A DNA stretch of 55,909 nt, taken from the NCBI GenBank assembly GCA_949745755.1, contig CATJZL010000044.1, positions 1-55,909 on the forward strand, read 5' to 3'. The notes beneath the pieces were generated by a model. That model made no database searches, was not told the origin of the DNA, and worked only from the letters and a program-made list of their open reading frames with translations. The stretch comes from an uncultured Bacilli bacterium (GTDB lineage Bacteria; Bacillota_I; Bacilli_A; RF39; UBA660). A program made the position numbers and the translations under genes. This document shows, piece after piece, positions 11,214 through 23,760 of the stretch (positions are counted from its first letter, which is position 1; each line of letters begins with the position of its first letter).

Positions 11214-12140
11214 ATGAAAAGTAAAGTGAAATGTATGCTTATACTTGTGACTTTCTTTTTCTTTACTATTACTTCGGTTGATGCTTCTACTCTTAGATGT
11301 GATAAATATTTATCTAAGGGATATAGGGGAGAAGAAGTTAAAAAATTACAGGGGATACTTAATGATACTATGGGATGTAATTTATCTGTTGATGGTATAT
11401 TTGGTAGTTTGACTAAAAAGTGTGTTCAGAGTTTTCAAAGTACATACCATTTAAAAGTGGATGGAATAGTTGGAATAAATACTTGCAGTATGTTGAATTC
11501 TTTATCTACTGGTAGCCTTACTTCTACTACCAATGAAAAAAGTGCTAGTTTATCTTCAAAAAAAGTTAAGCATATATCTGTTAGTGGTTATGCAATTGTT
11601 ATTGGGGACAAGGTTAATGTTCGAAAAAGTTATACAACTGAGTCTGAAATTTTGACTACTGTTGAGTTAGGAAAAAAAGTGAAATTAATTTCTAAGGCAG
11701 GAGAATGGTATAAAATTAAAGTTGGTGATGTTAAAGGATATATTCGTGAGGATTTACTTGCTCGTGATGCGATTATAGTTGATATTAGTGATCAAAAACT
11801 TTATTTTTATAGAGAAGGTAAAACTATTTTTACTTCAAAAGTTGTTACTGGTACAAAAGGTGTTCATGATACACCAATAGGAAAATATTTACTTGATATT
11901 AGTTATAAATCTAAAGAGACGCATTTAAAAGAGTTTGATACTTATGTTGATTATTGGATGCCATTTGTTATGTCACGTGGTATTGGATTTCATGATGCAG
12001 ATAAAAGGCCTGCTAGTGATTATACTAAAGATCATTATACATATGATGGAAGCCATGGTTGTGTAAATATGCAAAAGAAAAATGCTAAAAAATTATATAA
12101 ACTATTAGATCAAGATACTATTGTTGTTGTAAGAGAATAA
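11214..12140 (+). CDS. secreted L,D-transpeptidase (PG-binding domain + SH3b + YkuD catalytic domain)
   Basis: Signal peptide MKSKVKCMLILVTFFFF..VDA. PG_binding-like LQGILN...VDGIFGSLT...VDGIVG repeats. SH3b-like VNVRKS...GEWYKIKVGDVKGYI. YkuD motif GFHD...GSHGCVNM with catalytic Cys. Confidence 0.85.
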   Translation: MKSKVKCMLILVTFFFFTITSVDASTLRCDKYLSKGYRGEEVKKLQGILNDTMGCNLSVDGIFGSLTKKCVQSFQSTYHLKVDGIVGINTCSMLNSLSTGSLTSTTNEKSASLSSKKVKHISVSGYAIVIGDKVNVRKSYTTESEILTTVELGKKVKLISKAGEWYKIKVGDVKGYIREDLLARDAIIVDISDQKLYFYREGKTIFTSKVVTGTKGVHDTPIGKYLLDISYKSKETHLKEFDTYVDYWMPFVMSRGIGFHDADKRPASDYTKDHYTYDGSHGCVNMQKKNAKKLYKLLDQDTIVVVRE

Positions 12141-12165
12141 ATTTTATTAAGATTTATTCTTTTTT
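12134..12165 (+). terminator. rho-independent terminator overlapping the ldt stop codon
   Basis: AGAATAAAT / ATTTATTCT 9-bp stem, 9-nt loop, then TTTTT. Confidence 0.55.
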
Positions 12166-12286
12166 GTATAAAAATGTCAAATAAAGAAAAAGTCCTTGTA
12201 TAATTCTTAATAATTAGTATACAATGAATTTATAAGGATAAGGGTTTGGATTGAACATTATTCTTAGTATAAAATTTATAGGAGGT

Positions 12287-12583
12287 ATAATGATGGGAAC
12301 TGTACATGTTGAAGAATCAGGACTTAATGACTTAAAAGCTGCTATGGCAGAAGCAGGTGAAAATTATAAACAAAATTTAGCAAAATTACAAAATTTAATT
12401 AATGAAATTACAAGTGGTGATATAAAAGGAGATCCTGCTACTGATTTAAAAACTAAATTTGAAGCTAAAGAAGCTACATTTAAAGCACTAGCTAATACAA
12501 TTGATCAAGCAGAAGAAGATATGGGAATGCAGACTACTAAATTTACTAGCATGATTAGTAATTTATCTTCTAGTATGCAATAG
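12287..12583 (+). CDS. small alpha-helical protein, WXG100-superfamily-like (degenerate W-x-G = I-K-G)
   Basis: About 98 aa. TAGGAGG SD. Two predicted helices around a central SGDIKGDPA turn, with Ala/Glu/Lys/Leu heptad-like composition. First gene of a two-gene unit closed by a terminator. Confidence 0.55.
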   Translation: MMMGTVHVEESGLNDLKAAMAEAGENYKQNLAKLQNLINEITSGDIKGDPATDLKTKFEAKEATFKALANTIDQAEEDMGMQTTKFTSMISNLSSSMQ

Positions 12584-12609
12584 TTTTTTTGAGGAGAGGA
12601 GTTTATTTT

Positions 12610-12882
12610 ATGAATATAACTATTAATACAGGTGCAGCAGTTGAAGATGCTACACAAATTGATAATATAGTAAGGCAAATTGAACAAGATATGGAAATCT
12701 TGGATGCAGCTATAAAAAGAAATATACCATCAAATGTTGATACAGATTGGTCTGAAAGATTAAAATCTGATTGGACTAATTATTATGGTTCAGATGTTCC
12801 TGAGACTATGAGAGCTATGAATCAAAGTGCAGAAAATTTGAGAAAAGCAGTACAAGAAGCTTTAAATTATAGTCAAGGTTAA
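12610..12882 (+). CDS. small alpha-helical protein, WXG100-like (central DWSERLKSDW..YYG)
   Basis: 90 aa. GAGGAGAGGAG SD 8 nt before ATG 12610. Helix-turn-helix layout with a Trp-containing central turn and a C-terminal AENLRKAVQEALNYSQG tail reminiscent of Esx proteins. Confidence 0.55.
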   Translation: MNITINTGAAVEDATQIDNIVRQIEQDMEILDAAIKRNIPSNVDTDWSERLKSDWTNYYGSDVPETMRAMNQSAENLRKAVQEALNYSQG

Positions 12883-12886
12883 AAGG

Positions 12887-12916
12887 TATTCCTATTTTAT
12901 GTAGGAATATTTTTTT
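12887..12916 (+). terminator. rho-independent terminator after the small-protein pair
   Basis: TATTCCTA-TTTTATG-TAGGAATA stem-loop followed by T7 (12910-12916). Confidence 0.65.
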
Positions 12917-13010
12917 GTCTAGTTTTGTAAATTTAGGGAATATATATTTACATTCTTTTTTTATGATGTTATTCTATTATTAAGATAAGAGGTAGAAGGA
13001 TGATGATAAG

Positions 13011-13571
13011 ATGGCAGAAATAACTAGTTTAGAACAATGTTTTTCGATTTCAAAAATTTCAAGATATGTAATAGCATTGGATGAAATAAATGATCGATTA
13101 AATAATGAAATTATTAAAGTAGCAGATGAAAATCTATTTGGAAAAAGTGCATTTTATTGTGGAAATAGTCATGTTACAGTGAAAGAAAAGGTACATAAGG
13201 CTAACAAAGAAATTCAATCTACTGAAAAAAAAGTAAAAGAATTAAAAAATTTGATTTATAAAAAATCATATGAGCAAAGAGTTGAGGATTTGTCTAAATA
13301 TATTGATTATCTTAATGGAGAAATTGCTAAAGGAGAAGCGAATATAAATAAATATCAAAATTTATTGGATACACAATATCCTAATATCAGGGAAGAATCT
13401 GATTTTGGAAATCAAACGCGCTTTAATGCAGCTAATATAACAGCATGGAGAGTCACGCGGATTAGTAAAGATAATCAGTATGCAGCATTGGATCATTTAT
13501 ATCAGGAATTAGAAAAGGCAAAAGCAGAACTTACAAATGCCAAAATTATGGTTATGCATAATTTTATATAA
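13011..13571 (+). CDS. 186-aa coiled-coil protein with LXG-like N-terminal motif (no C-terminal effector domain)
   Basis: LDEINDRLNN (aa 23-32) then ENLFGKSAFY (aa 40-49). The remainder is Lys/Glu-rich coiled coil. Shares its N-terminal motif, in register, with the next gene. Confidence 0.5.
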   Translation: MAEITSLEQCFSISKISRYVIALDEINDRLNNEIIKVADENLFGKSAFYCGNSHVTVKEKVHKANKEIQSTEKKVKELKNLIYKKSYEQRVEDLSKYIDYLNGEIAKGEANINKYQNLLDTQYPNIREESDFGNQTRFNAANITAWRVTRISKDNQYAALDHLYQELEKAKAELTNAKIMVMHNFI

Positions 13572-13586
13572 TTAGTGGAGGTCAAT

Positions 13587-15176
13587 ATGGGATCAAATAA
13601 TGGATATAGTTGGTATTGTGATACTAAAAAATTAGATGAATGTAGTAATATTTTAGAACCTTTAGTAGATAGATTGACCAATATTGGAGATTCTGTTTCT
13701 GAATCAAAGAGTAGATTTGGTGGAGATTTGTCTACTTTAAAGGGTAGAGAGGAAATTTTATCTTCTTTTGAGGATATTCTTTTTTCATTGTTTAATGTAA
13801 AAAAGGGGTATACCAATATTATAGAATTGATTGATACTATTTTAGAAATGAACAAAAATTATACAGTAGGTAAGAATTCTAATGTATTTAAAGTATCTAG
13901 CAGTGGGAGTGCTTTTACAGTGTTGTTAGGTACAGAAGAATATAAAAGAATAAAGGAAAAATTTGGATATGATATTGGTATAAAATCAAAGAAATCGAAG
14001 GAAAGTGTTTTTGATTCTATTGGTCAAACTATGTCTAATTCTGTGGGAGCTATAGTAGTAAGTAAGGGGGCAATTAGTTCTGTATCCAGTATAGTTTCTT
14101 CAAAATCGAATGGTAAAGAAGAGACTTCTACTAGTATGAGTAGTACTCATACTAGTAGTGTTAAGTCTCAAATTCAACAAAAGAAGCAGAATGTTGAAGA
14201 TTCAGCCAAATTAAAAGAGAAAAAGAAGAGTACTAATAAGTCTAAGTTTAACTCTATCGGAAAAGTTACAGGTGCTACAACGACCATTGTAGGTACTACA
14301 GTTTCTCCAAGTTTAGATAAGGTTGTTTCTTCTAAACCTCCAATTCATTCTAATTCTTTTAATATTAAAGATTTTCTTGATCGGCTTCATATAACTATTA
14401 CTAATAAGCCTACTACTAATAAACCTACAACTGGAAATACAAACAGTGTTCAAAAGCCTGATTCTTCTTCCCCTAATGTTCCAGTCAATCCTAGTACTCC
14501 ATCTGTTCCTAATGAATTTCCTGAAGATCTAGTTGATACTCCAATACAAGGTGGAGAAGTAGTTGATTCTAATGTCTCTTCTTCTATTAATTCTTCTGCT
14601 TCATCTAGCACTTCTTCAATTAAAACAACAGGCACTACTAATGGAACTTATCAAAATTATAAAGTGGCTGGTTCTACAGTAGGTTCTATTTCTAATGAAC
14701 AGGTTTCTGTTGATACTTCTAACTCTCCTGATCTAGTTCAAAAGGAGGAGGGGAAATTACCAGATTATAATACAGGCAAAGATTTATTTGATATTGAAGA
14801 TATAGATGATGATTTACTTTCTTCTGAAGTAGAAGAGGTGGGCAAAGCGTCTAAAGGTTTGGGACCAGTTATTCCTATAGTTGGTGGTGTTTTAGGAGCT
14901 ACGGCCTTAGGAATTGGTGCGAAAGTTTATAAAGATAATAAGAGTAATAATGAGTTGGATTTAGATGAAGACCGATTAACAAATGAAAATAAATTTTGGA
15001 CAGATGAGGAAGCTGAAGTTATACATAGTGAAAAAGAAGTTTATGAAGAGGAAAAACAAGCAGTTATTGATACGAAATATAGAGCTATTCATAATGATAT
15101 AGAAGAAAGTGATACATGGAGTATGGATGAAGAAGTGGATGTAAATTCAACAATTGATTTATTAGAGAGTAATTAG
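13587..15176 (+). CDS. 529-aa protein: LXG-like N-terminal helical domain, long Ser/Thr/Pro-rich region, one TM helix, acidic C-terminal tail
   Basis: GGAGG SD before ATG 13587. LEPLVDRLTN (aa 23-32) and SRFGGDL (aa 42-48). Low-complexity S/T/P stretch including NKPTTNKPTT. TM GLGPVIPIVGGVLGATALGIGAKVY (nt ~14857-14931). Asp/Glu-rich tail. Confidence 0.55.
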   Translation: MGSNNGYSWYCDTKKLDECSNILEPLVDRLTNIGDSVSESKSRFGGDLSTLKGREEILSSFEDILFSLFNVKKGYTNIIELIDTILEMNKNYTVGKNSNVFKVSSSGSAFTVLLGTEEYKRIKEKFGYDIGIKSKKSKESVFDSIGQTMSNSVGAIVVSKGAISSVSSIVSSKSNGKEETSTSMSSTHTSSVKSQIQQKKQNVEDSAKLKEKKKSTNKSKFNSIGKVTGATTTIVGTTVSPSLDKVVSSKPPIHSNSFNIKDFLDRLHITITNKPTTNKPTTGNTNSVQKPDSSSPNVPVNPSTPSVPNEFPEDLVDTPIQGGEVVDSNVSSSINSSASSSTSSIKTTGTTNGTYQNYKVAGSTVGSISNEQVSVDTSNSPDLVQKEEGKLPDYNTGKDLFDIEDIDDDLLSSEVEEVGKASKGLGPVIPIVGGVLGATALGIGAKVYKDNKSNNELDLDEDRLTNENKFWTDEEAEVIHSEKEVYEEEKQAVIDTKYRAIHNDIEESDTWSMDEEVDVNSTIDLLESN

Positions 15177-15186
15177 GAGGGAATAT

Positions 15187-15588
15187 ATGGATAATAATAG
15201 TAAATATTTACCTATTGGATCTATAGTTTTACTGAAAGGTGGAATAAAGAGTGTGATGGTTACTGGTTTTTGTGTAATCCCAAATGATAAGCCTCATAAA
15301 ATGTATGATTATTGTGGTTATCCCTATCCAGAGGGCTGTATTAACTCTAATGAGGTTTGCTTATTTAATCATCACCAAATTGAAAAGATTGTTTTTATTG
15401 GCTATGTTAGTGAGGAGGAGGAATCATTTAAGAAAGAACTTCTTACTGTTGCTCAAGAAATTACTGTGGATAGTGATAATAATATAATTAGTGATAATTT
15501 GTCTGAGACATTGTCTTTACTTGATGATGATGTTCCATATGATGCTTCTTTTAGTATAAATGATAATATTTTTAATGAGGATGTTTAG
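15187..15588 (+). CDS. DUF4176-family protein (T7SSb-associated chaperone family) with acidic C-terminal extension
   Basis: YLPIGSIVLLKGG..VMVTGF......YDYCGYPYPEG......FNHHQIEKIVFIGY is the characteristic DUF4176 pattern. An extra ~50 aa Ser/Asp-rich tail follows. Confidence 0.75.
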   Translation: MDNNSKYLPIGSIVLLKGGIKSVMVTGFCVIPNDKPHKMYDYCGYPYPEGCINSNEVCLFNHHQIEKIVFIGYVSEEEESFKKELLTVAQEITVDSDNNIISDNLSETLSLLDDDVPYDASFSINDNIFNEDV

Positions 15589-15781
15589 ATTTATTTCCTG
15601 TTTTATTAAATTAGAGCCTAGTATTTAGTGCTTTTTTTATTTGATAGTAAATTATTTAATATATTATGGTTACTTCTATATGTTTATTTATTAAGATAAA
15701 AAAAGTTGTATTTCATATTTTAATTTTGAAAAAATTGTTGTATAATTTATTAGTAAATAAAACAAGAAAAGGAGAAAAAAT

Positions 15782-17209
15782 ATGAGAAAAACAAAAATGC
15801 TTTGTGGGATTGGTCCTGCTACACAAGATTGGGAAGTATTTAAAAAATTAGTCATGAATGGTCTTAATGTAGCGAGAGTTAACTTTTCCCATGCTACATT
15901 GGAAGAGAGAAAGACAACAGAAGATTTAGTGGCTAGAGCTCGTAAGGAATTAGGTAAAGATGTGGCTATTTTATTTGATACAAAGGGACCAGATCTTAGA
16001 ACATGTAGTTTTGAAAATGATTTTATAGACTTTGTTGCAGGAGCTACTATTAAAATTGTTAGAGAAAGTGTTCTAGGTACTAAGGATAAGATTAGTTTTA
16101 ATTTTCCTCAAGTTATTGATAATTTAGCTATAGGTACAGAAATATTGTTAAATGATGGCTTTGTAAGACTAGAAGTTATTTCTGTGGAAGATGAGAGTGG
16201 CGAAAATGGTGGAGGAGTTACTTGTAAAATCCTTGACAGTGCTACTTTACAAAGTAGACGTGGAGTGAATATCCCAGGAGTTGATTTGAATATTCCATTT
16301 ATTTCTGAAGTAGATGAAGAAGATATTAAGTATTCTTGCGAACATGATGGTGATTTTCTTGGTATTAGTTTTGTTTCAAGTGCAGAGGATGTACGTGCTG
16401 CAAGAGAATTGCTTGTAAAATATGGACGTGGAGATATGGCTATTCTATCCAAAATAGAAACAAAGAAAGCTATTGAAAATATTGATGAAATCATTGATGA
16501 GACTGATGGTATTATTATTGCTAGAGGAGATTTAAGTGTTGAAGTTCCTTTTATTGAGGTACCTGTGCTTCAAAAGATGATTTTAAGAAAATGTCGTGAA
16601 AAAGGAAAAGTTTGTATTGTTGCTACCGAAATGCTTAAAAGTATGTGTAAAAATTCACGTCCAACTAAAGCAGAGCTTACAGATATTTCAACTGCTGTTT
16701 TTGATGGAACCGATGCAGTATGGTTAAGTGATGAAACTACAATTGGTGCTCATCCAGATCTTGCTAGTCAATATTTAGGAGAAGTGGCAGATGAAGCAGA
16801 GGCTTATTACGAAGAGTATGGTACAAAATATCTTGCTAGTCATGGTCATGATACGCCAGATTTACTTGCTAGTAGTGTTGTAAAGGCAGCAGAGGATGGA
16901 AATGTTAAGGTTATTGTTGCGGCTACCATGAGTGGATTTACAGCACAAAGAATTAGTAATTTGAAACCAGATGCTATTGTACTTGCTGCTGTTCCAGATG
17001 AAAGGGTTGCTAGAAAGCTTGCTCTTACTTGGGGGGTTTATCCAATTGTTACTGGAGAATATGGTTCAACAGATGAACTTGTTGCAGATGCTGTTAAGCG
17101 TGCTAAAGAGTTTATGTCATTAGATAAGGGAGATAAGATAGTTATAACAGGAGGTTTCCCTAATACTGGTATTAAAAAGACCAACTTTATGAAGATAGAA
17201 GAAATTTAG
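15782..17209 (+). CDS. pyk: pyruvate kinase (no C-terminal PEP-utiliser extension)
   Basis: RKTKMLCGIGPA, NVARVNFSH, FDTKGPDLR, IIIARGDLSVEVP, ATEMLKSM motifs; 475 aa. Confidence 0.95.
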   Translation: MRKTKMLCGIGPATQDWEVFKKLVMNGLNVARVNFSHATLEERKTTEDLVARARKELGKDVAILFDTKGPDLRTCSFENDFIDFVAGATIKIVRESVLGTKDKISFNFPQVIDNLAIGTEILLNDGFVRLEVISVEDESGENGGGVTCKILDSATLQSRRGVNIPGVDLNIPFISEVDEEDIKYSCEHDGDFLGISFVSSAEDVRAARELLVKYGRGDMAILSKIETKKAIENIDEIIDETDGIIIARGDLSVEVPFIEVPVLQKMILRKCREKGKVCIVATEMLKSMCKNSRPTKAELTDISTAVFDGTDAVWLSDETTIGAHPDLASQYLGEVADEAEAYYEEYGTKYLASHGHDTPDLLASSVVKAAEDGNVKVIVAATMSGFTAQRISNLKPDAIVLAAVPDERVARKLALTWGVYPIVTGEYGSTDELVADAVKRAKEFMSLDKGDKIVITGGFPNTGIKKTNFMKIEEI

Positions 17210-21174: not shown

Positions 21175-22986
21175 GTGGGGAATGCTCAAGATTTGTATAC
21201 ATTTAAATATAGTGCAACAGATGTTACAGGTGCTCATATAAATTCATCATTTGTTGCTTTTAGTATCGATGATTTAAAAATTTTTTTAGAGACTTTAGGT
21301 TATAGTCATGTAAATATTCTTCCCTTAAAGGCGGGGAGTAAGGTTCCTGATTTAAAAAAGAAATTAAATGTAAAATTTGTATATGAAGACTTCTTAAATT
21401 TTTATCAATCATTAAAGGGTGGAAATAATTTATTTAGTTCTGTTATCTTTATGGTTAATAATTGCAATAATGATAATAAAAGTATTTATCTTCGTTTTGC
21501 CTATTTTATGCAAAAAGGGTATAATTTGTCTACTTCTATGAAATTATTAGGTGAAAATATAATTCCTAATGATATTATTGAAGCTTTTTCTAAGGCTGAT
21601 TCTTCAGGAGAGATTCTTCCCCAATTAGATGTGCTTTTAGATTTGTATCATTCTAAAAGAAAAAAGTCTTTTATGGAAACTATTTTCGGAAAAAGTAACC
21701 AATCTGCTTCTATTGATAAGGCAGCGAAAGATGCTTTATCTGGTATTGGTGGAAGAGAAAAATCTGGAAAAACTGCGACTTTGTATCCTTTTAAATATAA
21801 GGCTGTTTCTGAGATGGGTAAGAAAGTAAGTGGATCATTTGAAGCAGAAACGATAGATGATTGTAAACATTTTTTAGAGTTACAGGGTTATACTAACATT
21901 AAAATTGTTCCTAGAAGTAAACTTGATATTGATATAGAATTTAATGCAAAACTGAAAGCTGCTGATCTTTCTTTTGATTTAACACAACTTTCTACTTATA
22001 TTAAATCTGGTATTTCATTAATTGATGGAGTTACGATTCTTGCTAAGCAGGCTAAGAAGTCTGTTAGTAAAAAAATATATCAAAAGTTAGTTTATGATTT
22101 GTTAAAGGGATATAGTTTAAGTGTTGCTATGGATAAACAGGGAGAGGCGTTTCCTCAGCTTTTAATTAATATGGTTCGTTCAGCTGAAATGACGGGTGAT
22201 CTTCCCTCTATATTAGATGATATGGCCGATTACTATGAGGGAGTAGAGCAGACTAAAAAAACAATGAAAAGTGCTATGACTTATCCTATTTTAGTTTTAA
22301 CGCTTGCTATTGGTGTTTTTATTTTTATGCTTATGTATCTTGTTCCTCAGTTTATTACTTTATATGAGAGTAATGGTGCAAGTCTTCCAGGAATTACTTT
22401 GTTTGTTATTGGTTTATCAAGTTTTATTCAACATAGTATTATTTATCTTATTTTGGGAATTATTATTGTTATACTTATTTTTTATTTGTGTTATAGAAAT
22501 ATCTTTGTTTTTCGTAAAGCTATTCAAACCGCTACTATGAAAATGCCTATTTTTGGGAATATTATTATTTATAATGAAGTGTATACCTTTACTAAGACGT
22601 TTGCTTCTTTAATTAATCATGGTGTTTTTATTACAGATAGTATGGAAATTTTATCTAAAATTACAAATAACGAAGTTTATAAGGCTATTATTGCCAAGAC
22701 ACTTTCTAATTTAGCTAAGGGTGATAATATTTCGAAATCCTTTAAAAATGAATGGGCATTTCCTACTGTTGCCTATCATATGCTAGTAACAGGAGAAAAT
22801 ACTGGACAGTTAGGTCTTATGATGGAAAAGGTATCAGAACATTATCAACAGCTTCATAAGGCATTGGTTGATCAGTTAAAAGGATTAATTGAGCCGATTA
22901 TGATTTTGGTTGTTGCTGGTATTGTTGGGGTGATTTTAGTATCTATTATTACACCTATGTTTAGTATTTATGAACAGGTACAATAG
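21175..22986 (+). CDS. type II secretion/type IV pilus platform protein (GspF/PilC family) with an extra N-terminal PilC-N + GspF-like module
   Basis: GTG start 9 nt after AGAGGG. The PilC N-terminal motif occurs twice (aa 8-51 YTFKYSATDVTG...FLETLGY; aa 204-247 YPFKYKAVSEMG...FLELQGY). Three GspF-like cytoplasmic blocks. TM helices occur only in the C-terminal ~400 aa, which by itself looks like a full-length PilC. Confidence 0.8.
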   Translation: MGNAQDLYTFKYSATDVTGAHINSSFVAFSIDDLKIFLETLGYSHVNILPLKAGSKVPDLKKKLNVKFVYEDFLNFYQSLKGGNNLFSSVIFMVNNCNNDNKSIYLRFAYFMQKGYNLSTSMKLLGENIIPNDIIEAFSKADSSGEILPQLDVLLDLYHSKRKKSFMETIFGKSNQSASIDKAAKDALSGIGGREKSGKTATLYPFKYKAVSEMGKKVSGSFEAETIDDCKHFLELQGYTNIKIVPRSKLDIDIEFNAKLKAADLSFDLTQLSTYIKSGISLIDGVTILAKQAKKSVSKKIYQKLVYDLLKGYSLSVAMDKQGEAFPQLLINMVRSAEMTGDLPSILDDMADYYEGVEQTKKTMKSAMTYPILVLTLAIGVFIFMLMYLVPQFITLYESNGASLPGITLFVIGLSSFIQHSIIYLILGIIIVILIFYLCYRNIFVFRKAIQTATMKMPIFGNIIIYNEVYTFTKTFASLINHGVFITDSMEILSKITNNEVYKAIIAKTLSNLAKGDNISKSFKNEWAFPTVAYHMLVTGENTGQLGLMMEKVSEHYQQLHKALVDQLKGLIEPIMILVVAGIVGVILVSIITPMFSIYEQVQ

Positions 22987-22995
22987 GAGGAATTT

Positions 22996-23760
22996 ATGGA
23001 AAAATTGTATATACCTTTGTTCTTTTTCTTTGGATGTATCTTTGGTTCTTTTTTTGCAGTTGTTGGGGAGAGATTACCTAAGAAGGAAAATTTTACTACA
23101 TCTTCTTCTCATTGTGATTCTTGTGGTCATAAGTTAGCTTTTTTGGATATGATTCCTGTTTTTACTTATTTATTTAATTTGGGGAAGTGTCGATACTGTA
23201 AAGCACCTATTCCTGTACTTTTACCTGTTGTGGAATTATTAACAGGACTTTTATTTAGTGTCAGTTATTATAGTTTCGGTTTTAGTTATGAGCTTCTTGT
23301 TGCTTTAGGGGTTGTTGCTTTATTTATGATTGTTTTAGTAAGTGATTTACTTTATTATATCATCTCTGATGGGGTTCTTGTTTTTTTTGCCTTTTATTTT
23401 ATTATTATTCAATACTTTAAGGGTGGTTTAAATTATATGTCCAGTCGGGTGGTTACAGGTCTTTTTCTCTTTTTGATTATGTATTTTATTATGATTTTTG
23501 GTGAAAAAGTTTTTAAAAAAGAAAGTCTTGGTGGAGGAGATGTGAAACTTTTATTTGTATTTGGTTTAGTGCTAGAGCCTATTTTAGGGGTTTTATCCAT
23601 TTTTATTGCAAGTGTCATTGCCCTTATACCTAGTATTTATATATTAATTAAAAATAGGGACCATATGATTCCTTTTGGACCATTTTTACTTGTTTCCTTT
23701 GCTTTTATTTATTTTAGTAAGATTACGACTTTGGATTTTTTAAAATTTTTAGGTTTTTAG
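22996..23760 (+). CDS. prepilin peptidase (A24 family, PilD/ComC-like)
   Basis: N-terminal Cys4 motif CDSCGHKL...CRYCKAPI. Two Asp boxes (VSDLLYYIISD and GGGDVKLL). Polytopic membrane protein. Confidence 0.85.
   Translation: MEKLYIPLFFFFGCIFGSFFAVVGERLPKKENFTTSSSHCDSCGHKLAFLDMIPVFTYLFNLGKCRYCKAPIPVLLPVVELLTGLLFSVSYYSFGFSYELLVALGVVALFMIVLVSDLLYYIISDGVLVFFAFYFIIIQYFKGGLNYMSSRVVTGLFLFLIMYFIMIFGEKVFKKESLGGGDVKLLFVFGLVLEPILGVLSIFIASVIALIPSIYILIKNRDHMIPFGPFLLVSFAFIYFSKITTLDFLKFLGF

Follow-up and report, generated by a model that had tools for sequence, protein, structure and literature searches.

A conserved gene cassette of uncultured gut Bacilli, a probable type VIIb secretion cargo module for an anchored envelope protein

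The cargo of the type VIIb secretion systems (T7SSb) known in Bacillota consists mostly of polymorphic LXG toxins encoded together with immunity genes. Here, we describe a cassette of five genes, A to E, in the region 12287–15588 of a 55,909-nt stretch of DNA (hereafter, the window), contig CATJZL010000044.1 of an uncultured Bacilli bacterium. The cassette is probably a lineage-conserved T7SSb cargo module delivering a C-terminally anchored envelope protein, the product of gene D, with EssC encoded elsewhere. Several described systems provide points of comparison. In T7SSb, proteins of the DUF4176 family serve as chaperones, each specific to a toxin, and bind segments that are disordered or hydrophobic; their small class is needed for the stability of the membrane-depolarizing TelD, as known for the protein of PDB entry 9DCS, and has been proposed to bind hydrophobic helices (PMC12478183). 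TspA of Staphylococcus aureus is a T7SS substrate that is conserved species-wide, lies on the outer face of the membrane, and is encoded far from the ess locus (PMC7456083). TelE of Streptococcus gallolyticus is a 514-aa protein with a 195-residue LXG domain and a glycine zipper at residues 458–480. LapE1, LapE2, and LcpE, a DUF4176 protein, are specified by the same operon, as are a protein with six transmembrane (TM) segments and two DUF5085 immunity-type proteins; the neutralizing proteins encoded downstream of TelE number three (bioRxiv 10.64898/2026.03.12.711312).

The TelE operon is the closest architectural analogue of the cassette. Both encode two small helical proteins (here A, 97 aa, 12290–12583, and B, 90 aa, 12610–12882), a DUF4176 chaperone (E, 133 aa, 15187–15588), and a cargo of ~520 aa (D, 529 aa, 13587–15176, with an alternative GTG start at 13575) that combines a helical N-terminus with a glycine-zipper helix near the C-terminus. 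However, the N-terminal hairpin of D comprises ~90 residues and has no LXG match, and D bears a conserved 82-residue acidic tail. The six-TM and DUF5085 proteins are absent from the cassette, which has an additional helical protein, C (186 aa, 13011–13571), and in which the DUF4176 gene is downstream of the cargo gene. TspA and TelD of Streptococcus intermedius are membrane-active T7SSb substrates associated with small DUF4176 proteins and DUF443 immunity proteins. The small DUF4176 protein stabilizing TelD (9DCS) has its counterpart in E, but TspA is a peripheral toxin resembling colicins, and its DUF443 immunity genes form arrays, whereas only one membrane helix is predicted in D, its gene has no immunity gene beside it, and D is not detectably homologous to TspA or TelD. 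With the LXG–Lap–Ltc presecretion complexes (TelA-LapA3-LapA4-LtcA, 8GMH, 9MNO), the cassette would share the logic only: small partners on a helical targeting domain and a DUF4176 protein on a hydrophobic or disordered downstream segment. Unlike the proteins of these complexes, A to D give no LXG, DUF3130, DUF3958, DUF5344, or DUF5082 signal, and the similarity of C to 8GMH is not significant. The cassette differs from the TelE and TspA/TelD systems by its clade-specific C, the conservation of the C-terminus of its cargo, its fixed position, and the lack of an LXG domain and of an adjacent immunity gene.

The five cassette genes are real genes. They are all on the + strand between an L,D-transpeptidase gene (ldt, 11214–12140, with YkuD, PG_binding_1, and SH3_3 domains) and pyk (15782–17209), an arrangement that was reported in a preliminary description of this DNA and that the open reading frames (ORFs) and the Pfam matches of the flanking genes confirm. 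The same gene calls in the same context were made by metagenome gene callers in independent metagenome assemblies of this species. An AGGAGG ribosome-binding site is present 3–4 nt 5′ of gene A, and the GC content of the cassette matches that of the surrounding DNA. Scans of A to D against Pfam, NCBIfam, PADLOC, and PHROGs returned nothing significant beyond coiled-coil noise, and no significant match was found in the PDB by sequence. In the Pfam and NCBIfam lists, at E values up to 1, A to D match neither WXG100, LXG, DUF3130/TIGR04197, and DUF3958 nor DUF5344 and DUF5082; a marginal YwqH-like match of C (E = 0.089) is far under the cutoff. Judging from the window sequence, only the DUF4176 assignment of the preliminary description stands. 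Its report that the cassette lacks a recognizable toxin domain and a following immunity gene also holds, both in the Pfam and NCBIfam scans of the cassette proteins and in the list of ORFs adjoining the cassette.

Gene E undoubtedly encodes a DUF4176 protein. It matches PF13780 with 87.5 bits (E = 6e-25, cutoff 25) over profile positions 1–74 of 74, the domain occupying residues 7–81 (15205–15429), and PDB 9DCS with an E value of 4.4e-9 over residues 5–93. With 133 aa, this Ltc/Lcp-type chaperone is at the upper edge of the small DUF4176 class (70–130 aa; PMC12478183). E proteins are 56–72% identical across the cassettes compared, and gene E is adjacent to gene D in all contexts that show what lies downstream. 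E also matches the PHROG phrog_14657 of unknown function (E = 1e-17) and, weakly, a PDB chain named "Tube tail (CD1367)" (E = 0.005); domains of the DUF4176 kind are therefore found in phage or phage-tail-like settings as well.

The cassette was compared in 12 contig contexts, namely the window and 11 others, all from metagenome-assembled genomes or metagenomes of uncultured gut "Bacilli." Loci L010–L014 come from a scan of species-representative genomes, and six further neighborhoods of D-family genes were inspected. The order of genes is the same in 12/12 contexts: a small protein, a second small protein, a helical protein of 130–195 aa, a D-family protein, and a DUF4176 protein, although in L017 the contig stops after ~130 bp of the last of these genes. 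Across the 12 contexts, neither an immunity-like gene nor a membrane-protein gene is found consistently beside the cassette. The genes that flank it have housekeeping or sporulation functions. Upstream, several loci display rpsT-gpr-(VTT)-spoIIP, then a gene of 106–107 aa, then the cassette, and pheT lies just upstream in L010, L012, and L013. Downstream, the cassette is directly followed by lepA and a radical-SAM gene in L010, L011, L013, and L014; in L024, one gene intervenes. These flanks resemble gpr-spoIIP-yqxA-lepA-hemN, the order in Bacillus subtilis, so the position of the cassette looks old, fixed, and part of the core genome. The preliminary description had raised the possibility of an insertion between ldt and pyk. 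Comparison of this interval among relatives speaks otherwise, as the cassette is conserved in core-gene contexts and it is the genome of the window that is rearranged. A recent insertion or mobile island was likewise rejected in view of the uniform GC content, the absence of mobility genes adjacent to the cassette in the window, and the conserved core-gene contexts.

Positional orthologues were decisive for the assignment of A. Window A itself has no direct match in Pfam, NCBIfam, or the PDB, including to WXG100 at E values up to 1, and stays below the gathering score of PF06013, so that it is formally not a member of the WXG100 family. It carries I-K-G aligned under the W-K-S or W-T-D of its orthologues, which confirms that the W-x-G motif is degenerate, as previously noted. 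The position-A proteins of L014 and L013 pass the Pfam WXG100 model with 40.7 and 29.8 bits, respectively (cutoff 27.3), and precomputed annotations assign WXG100 at position A in L001/L010, L019, L021, L023, and L024. We refer to the Pfam-positive WXG100 pairs at positions A and B as type 1 and to the pair found in the window, L017, and L027 as type 2. Window A shares 63% identity with position A of L017 and visibly resembles the L027 protein. In an hhalign comparison, the type-2 A pair aligned with the type-1 Pfam-positive orthologues with 93.7% probability over 93 of 97 columns. The alignment of 11 position-A sequences is essentially ungapped, and the profile of these 11 positional orthologues matches solved EsxB/EsxA structures in the PDB (E = 8e-6). 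The type-2 A profile taken alone gives no EsxA match in the PDB, window A and B resemble the type-1 orthologues weakly in pairwise and shuffle tests, and the link of A to type 1 emerged only once L017 had provided a second type-2 sequence. A shares with the WXG100 proteins EsxA and EsxB (PF06013) a length of ~100 aa, the pairing of the genes, and a full-length profile similarity, with positional orthologues passing the Pfam model; it differs from them by its I-K-G. It is best read, from these comparisons, as a WXG100 derivative without its tryptophan.

The case of B is marginal. Window B is 47% identical to B of L017 and has neither a WXG100 match of its own in Pfam nor a PDB match by sequence. 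Its orthologues match WXG100 weakly (E = 0.011–0.035), below the cutoff, and the B family profile matches EsxA 3ZBH at an E value of 2e-3, amid coiled-coil noise. The hhalign comparison of type-2 with type-1 B gave 47% probability, over the N-terminus only. B thus appears weakly WXG100-like and is likely the partner of A. None of the Lap family models (DUF3130/TIGR04197, DUF3958, DUF5344, and DUF5082) matches A, B, or C at E values up to 1. The small proteins had been proposed to be partners of the WXG100 or Lap type: this is partly upheld for A through the Pfam-positive orthologues aligned by hhalign, neither A nor B has a direct match, and B is borderline.

D is the founder of an unannotated family. 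A phmmer search with its C-terminal 139 aa recovered 61 clusters among 1.84 billion representative proteins; word-indexed homologue searches gave only two clusters for D and four for C, and the family was defined by the full HMMER scan. Its members are mostly ~370–900 aa long, with a few shorter fragments, and the match is at or near their C-terminal end. The family alignment contains 56 members. Across the cassettes compared, the last 140 residues of D are 38–59% identical and the N-terminal domain 27–44%, the membrane helix and the tail thus appearing as the most conserved part of the protein. Residues 9–96 (13611–13874), predicted to form a helix-turn-helix hairpin of WXG100 size, are the sole confident part of the AlphaFold2 (AF2) model (pLDDT >90, from the 56-sequence alignment). 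The best Foldseek matches of this hairpin are FadA and the Mycobacterium abscessus EsxEF WXG100 pair, with target-normalized TM-scores of 0.79–0.84, rmsd of 1.4–1.8 Å, and E values of 0.3–0.7.

Both C and D had been considered LXG-like, and the cassette an LXG effector module. Neither view can be maintained. LXG proteins are recognized by a match to the model and by a conserved L-x-G in a helical domain of ~200 residues; PF04740 matches neither C nor D of the window, none of the 56 D-family members, and no C of eight other loci, and the confident domain of D comprises ~90 residues. The "LKG" of D (residues 51–53) is situated at the predicted turn of the hairpin and is absent from the closest orthologue. 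Searched against the PDB, the D-family profile returned coiled-coil noise and matched no LXG toxin entry.

The remainder of D consists of a spacer, a membrane helix, and a tail. The spacer (residues 131–415, 13977–14831) is of low complexity, rich in Ser, Thr, Lys, and Asn, and predicted to be disordered: its pLDDT is <50 and it does not align between orthologues. It may span the cell wall. In the orthologue P0088, a full CW_7 peptidoglycan-binding repeat (residues 163–199, 51.6 bits) is found N-terminal of the membrane helix (420–438). In D, the helix identified by hydropathy (residues 425–447, 14859–14927) contains the glycine zipper G434-x3-A438-x-A440-x-G442-x-G444. Across the 56 members, G444 and K446 never vary, and P430, G434, A438, A440, and G442 hardly do. 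The strongly acidic tail (residues 448–529, 14928–15173) displays the motifs KxYKDxK, NxNKFWTDE, VIHSE, DTW, and DLLxxN, and the median net charge of the tail in the family is −20. Hydropathy predicts one C-terminal hydrophobic helix in most members and an N-terminal signal-like segment in none. In 37 of the 56 members, Lys and Arg together are commoner behind the helix than in front of it; in four, they are rarer. Because of the lack of a signal-like segment, this bias, and the position of CW_7 relative to the helix, we favor a topology in which the N-terminal part of D would be outside the cell and the acidic tail in the cytoplasm (N-out/C-in). As this topology would be reached without a Sec signal, a dedicated, non-Sec export of ~420 residues seems required. 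The suggestion that D is a membrane-anchored surface protein is thus strengthened by hydropathy, CW_7, and the distribution of charges.

The secretion machinery itself is probably encoded at some distance. As noted previously, ORF scans of the 55.9-kb window reveal no EssC-like multi-P-loop ATPase. In a relative, the contig of L023/L025, whose cassette encodes the D protein P0141, carries a gene for an EssC of 1521 aa (TIGR03928, 975 bits, cutoff 778) 10 kb downstream of the cassette. After EssC, this locus (L025, 12196–22109) encodes proteins of 89, 243, 189, 109, and 73 aa, a DUF4176 protein of 165 aa, which is of the large type and the second DUF4176 protein of the contig, and a 2198-aa protein; essC is preceded by genes for a ClpB-like AAA ATPase and an unannotated 564-aa protein. 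The 89-aa protein matches no model and is YukD/EsaB-like by eye. Among the L025 proteins scanned around essC, none matches the WXG100, EssB, EsaA, or EssA models. Since no WXG100 protein was found there, A of the L023/L025 cassette is plausibly the EsxA of the system of the nearby EssC. A similar compact essC locus, of 25% GC, is present in L029, with a 93-aa protein before essC that is also YukD/EsaB-like by eye. Scanning metagenomes with the L025 EssC returned three loci, among them a compact essC locus, and none is attributable to the species of the window. On this sequence evidence, the clade has a T7SSb, and the "orphan" state of the cassette most likely corresponds to a remotely encoded machinery. 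Of the options left by the preliminary description, a remote substrate island is favored by the EssC above the TIGR03928 cutoff on the cassette contig of a relative and by the precedent of TspA, encoded away from the ess locus (PMC7456083).

The third gene, C, is specific to the clade. Orthologues are found in L010–L014 (hmmsearch, 84 bits), and the position-C proteins of other clades have no detectable homology to window C or to each other. The AF2 model of C (pLDDT 81) comprises a helix (13–33), a β-hairpin (47–56), and two further helices (57–122 and 137–182). Foldseek retrieved generic coiled coils and nothing significant, a chain of 8GMH (the TelA-LXG/LapA3/LapA4 complex) being at rank 39 with an E value of 1. 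C matches no LXG or Lap model, its profile gives only coiled-coil noise against the PDB, and it carries a semi-conserved [FY]-G-x-K segment before the β-hairpin and no other LXG feature. Because C and the N-terminal domain of D diverge in parallel, C may be a specific partner of this domain.

The cassette probably comprises two units. A hairpin with a 15-bp stem followed by T7 was identified by RNAfold at 12881–12917 (+ strand), directly 3′ of gene B. Owing to its AT-rich stem, it escaped a simple terminator scan. It is probably a terminator or attenuator dividing an A-B unit from a C-D-E unit, and promoter-like hexamers and a ribosome-binding site precede gene C. Strong hairpins are present in the B-C spacer of 11/11 loci (window, L010–L014, L017, L019, L021, L023, and L024): each spacer contains one or two AT-rich hairpins of −17 to −32 kcal/mol over 75 nt (RNAfold), some with overlapping alternative arms, and a clear U-tract follows the window hairpin only. 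No Rfam family matches them; attenuation, RNA processing or stability, or operator function are conceivable roles. The two units also differ in their affinities. The type-2 A-B pair is shared by the window (12290–12882), L017 (8894–9491), and L027 (8875–9462), A and B of the window being nearest to those of L017, and in L017 and L027 the D proteins are 800–897 aa long and C is unrelated to that of the window. Conversely, C, D, and E of the window are closest to those of L010–L014, which carry a different, Pfam-positive WXG100 pair. The two blocks therefore have different histories, and these affinities point to a mosaic cassette whose A-B pair has been exchanged as a unit. The five genes had been presented as a single block: their order is the same everywhere seen, and A-B and C-D-E appear to be separate units.

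Other genes around the cassette were also compared. The larger scanned ORFs of the window encode housekeeping proteins such as topA, parE, SecDF, RelA, AlaS, and a T2SSF pilus protein, with parC just upstream of ylbD/ylbE. A hydrophobic ORF of 54 aa on the − strand (15691–15855) runs opposite to the E-pyk spacer and the beginning of pyk. It is probably an artifact and has no conserved immunity-like counterpart in the other contexts. An ldt gene, for a secreted L,D-transpeptidase with the domains of the window enzyme, lies directly upstream of the cassette in L010 (4557–5480) as well, with 52% identity and different outer flanks, and is absent from this position in the other 10 contexts. Being adjacent in only two of 12 contexts, the window and L010, ldt was rejected as a member of the module; a functional link between ldt and a wall-associated cargo is conceivable but not supported. 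The ~8 kb past the 3′ end of the window hold hrcA-grpE-dnaK-dnaJ (L032, 1593–6278), without lepA-hemW beside them. As several relatives have the cassette just upstream of lepA, this arrangement would fit a genome rearrangement in this species by which the cassette and ldt were relocated jointly. The sole mobility gene beside any cassette is an insertion sequence-type transposase pair directly upstream of that of L011 (965–1755). Genes of the type IV pilus kind occur near several cassettes: in the window, a T2SSF protein and a prepilin peptidase are encoded ~6 kb downstream (21175–23760); in L019, a 547-aa prepilin-like protein is encoded directly after the DUF4176 gene (11983–13626); and in L012, a pilin-like gene is located ~2.5 kb downstream (13385–13882). 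These are probably cases of coincidental synteny.

We propose the following scheme for a cargo module of this kind. A and B would form a pair of the EsxA/EsxB WXG100 type, here in a divergent form without the tryptophan. D would be the cargo; its hairpin, probably bundled with the co-varying C, would form the elongated targeting structure required by T7SS substrates, with A/B and C serving as helical co-substrates or targeting partners. A dimer of the small DUF4176 protein E would bind the hydrophobic glycine-zipper region of D and keep it soluble in the cytoplasm until export through EssC. After export, the N-terminal ~420 residues of D would be outside the membrane, in the wall, with the zipper helix across the membrane and the acidic tail inside. 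The T7SS link put forward in the preliminary description is supported by the DUF4176 protein, by the WXG100 orthologues at position A, and by the hairpin N-terminus of D, and most of this support comes from relatives rather than from the window itself.

Several observations weigh against such a cargo module. We know of no way by which a T7SS could leave a substrate anchored N-out/C-in. Neither C nor D has detectable similarity to characterized T7SS substrates or Lap families, the Foldseek matches of C and of the D hairpin are not significant, and CW_7 is present in only three of the 56 D-family members. A and B of the window have no direct WXG100 signal, so that a T7SS function may have been lost, and no EssC or other multi-P-loop ORF exists in the 55.9-kb window or in the ~8 kb beyond its 3′ end. 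In 11/12 contexts, no T7SS gene was found in the flanks fetched (up to ~10 kb on each side). Taken together, this absence of EssC from ~64 kb around the cassette of this species, the 11 contexts without nearby T7SS genes, and the missing tryptophan of A would also suit a lineage without EssC, in which a cytoplasmic helical complex accompanies a tail-anchored protein inserted by other means. We regard this T7SS-independent explanation as highly improbable because EssC shares a contig with the cassette in the L023/L025 relative, because CW_7 and the positive-inside pattern argue for the export of a long N-terminal region without a signal, and because C, D, and E are still well conserved. Hardly more credible is a variant in which, in this species, the cassette has become independent of an EssC-type machine and A-B, C, and E deliver D to the envelope by an undescribed route, possibly linked to the neighboring sporulation and cell-wall genes.

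The glycine zipper raises another alternative, as the C-terminal zipper of TelE is its toxic element (bioRxiv 10.64898/2026.03.12.711312). D could be a membrane-permeabilizing antibacterial toxin similar to TelE or TspA, exported by the T7SS and inserting its zipper into the membrane of competitors; some orthologues would bind the target wall through CW_7, and the acidic tail of D, or a gene located elsewhere, would confer immunity. In its dimensions (529 aa, zipper at 425–447), D is comparable to TelE, its neighbors are of the same kinds, and small DUF4176 proteins go with the membrane-depolarizing toxins TelD and TspA. However, DUF443, DUF5085, or a consistently placed membrane protein flank the cassette in 0/12 contexts, D has no LXG domain and matches none of the LXG toxin entries of the PDB by sequence, no recognizable toxin domain was found, and a conserved C-terminus with a variable N-terminus is the reverse of what is found in polymorphic toxins. 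With this conserved C-terminus, its fixed core-genome position, without paralogue arrays, and no immunity gene beside it, D has the appearance of a conserved protein of the envelope or surface rather than of a polymorphic antibacterial toxin, and we consider the toxin explanation unlikely. Conservation and synteny like those of core genes could also mean that D, together with C, is a structural or accessory part of a streamlined T7SSb, for instance a wall-spanning substitute for EsaA, EssA, or EssB. In the sequence seen around the L023/L025 essC, the first gene of the cassette is apparently the only one of EsxA type, the scanned L025 proteins match no EssB, EsaA, or EssA model, and the two essC loci (L025 and L029) show, apart from a small protein beside essC, only helical proteins and a giant one. 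Yet, the sequence seen around essC amounts to only ~20 kb, and the genes for EssB or EsaA may be situated in other parts of these genomes. For core machinery, moreover, C in its entirety and the N-terminal domain of D evolve too rapidly. Furthermore, each DUF4176 chaperone serves a specific exported client (PMC12478183), an indication that D is a substrate, and TspA, tested as a core component for similar reasons, proved not to be one (PMC7456083). We therefore hold a machinery role of D to be very unlikely.

The cassette is vertically conserved in the core genome of common, uncultured gut Bacilli and joins known targeting and chaperone parts to an apparently membrane-anchored, wall-associated cargo. 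In these bacteria, the routine task of a T7SSb may be the biogenesis of a conserved, anchored surface protein instead of the delivery of toxins. More generally, the comparison with relatives made here is needed for apparent "orphan" T7SS islands before they are labeled as devoid of machinery. If the cargo-module reading is true, small DUF4176 chaperones gain a natural test case for what they bind, ~60 unannotated protein clusters gain a role, and the function of T7SSb extends to the biogenesis of envelope proteins.

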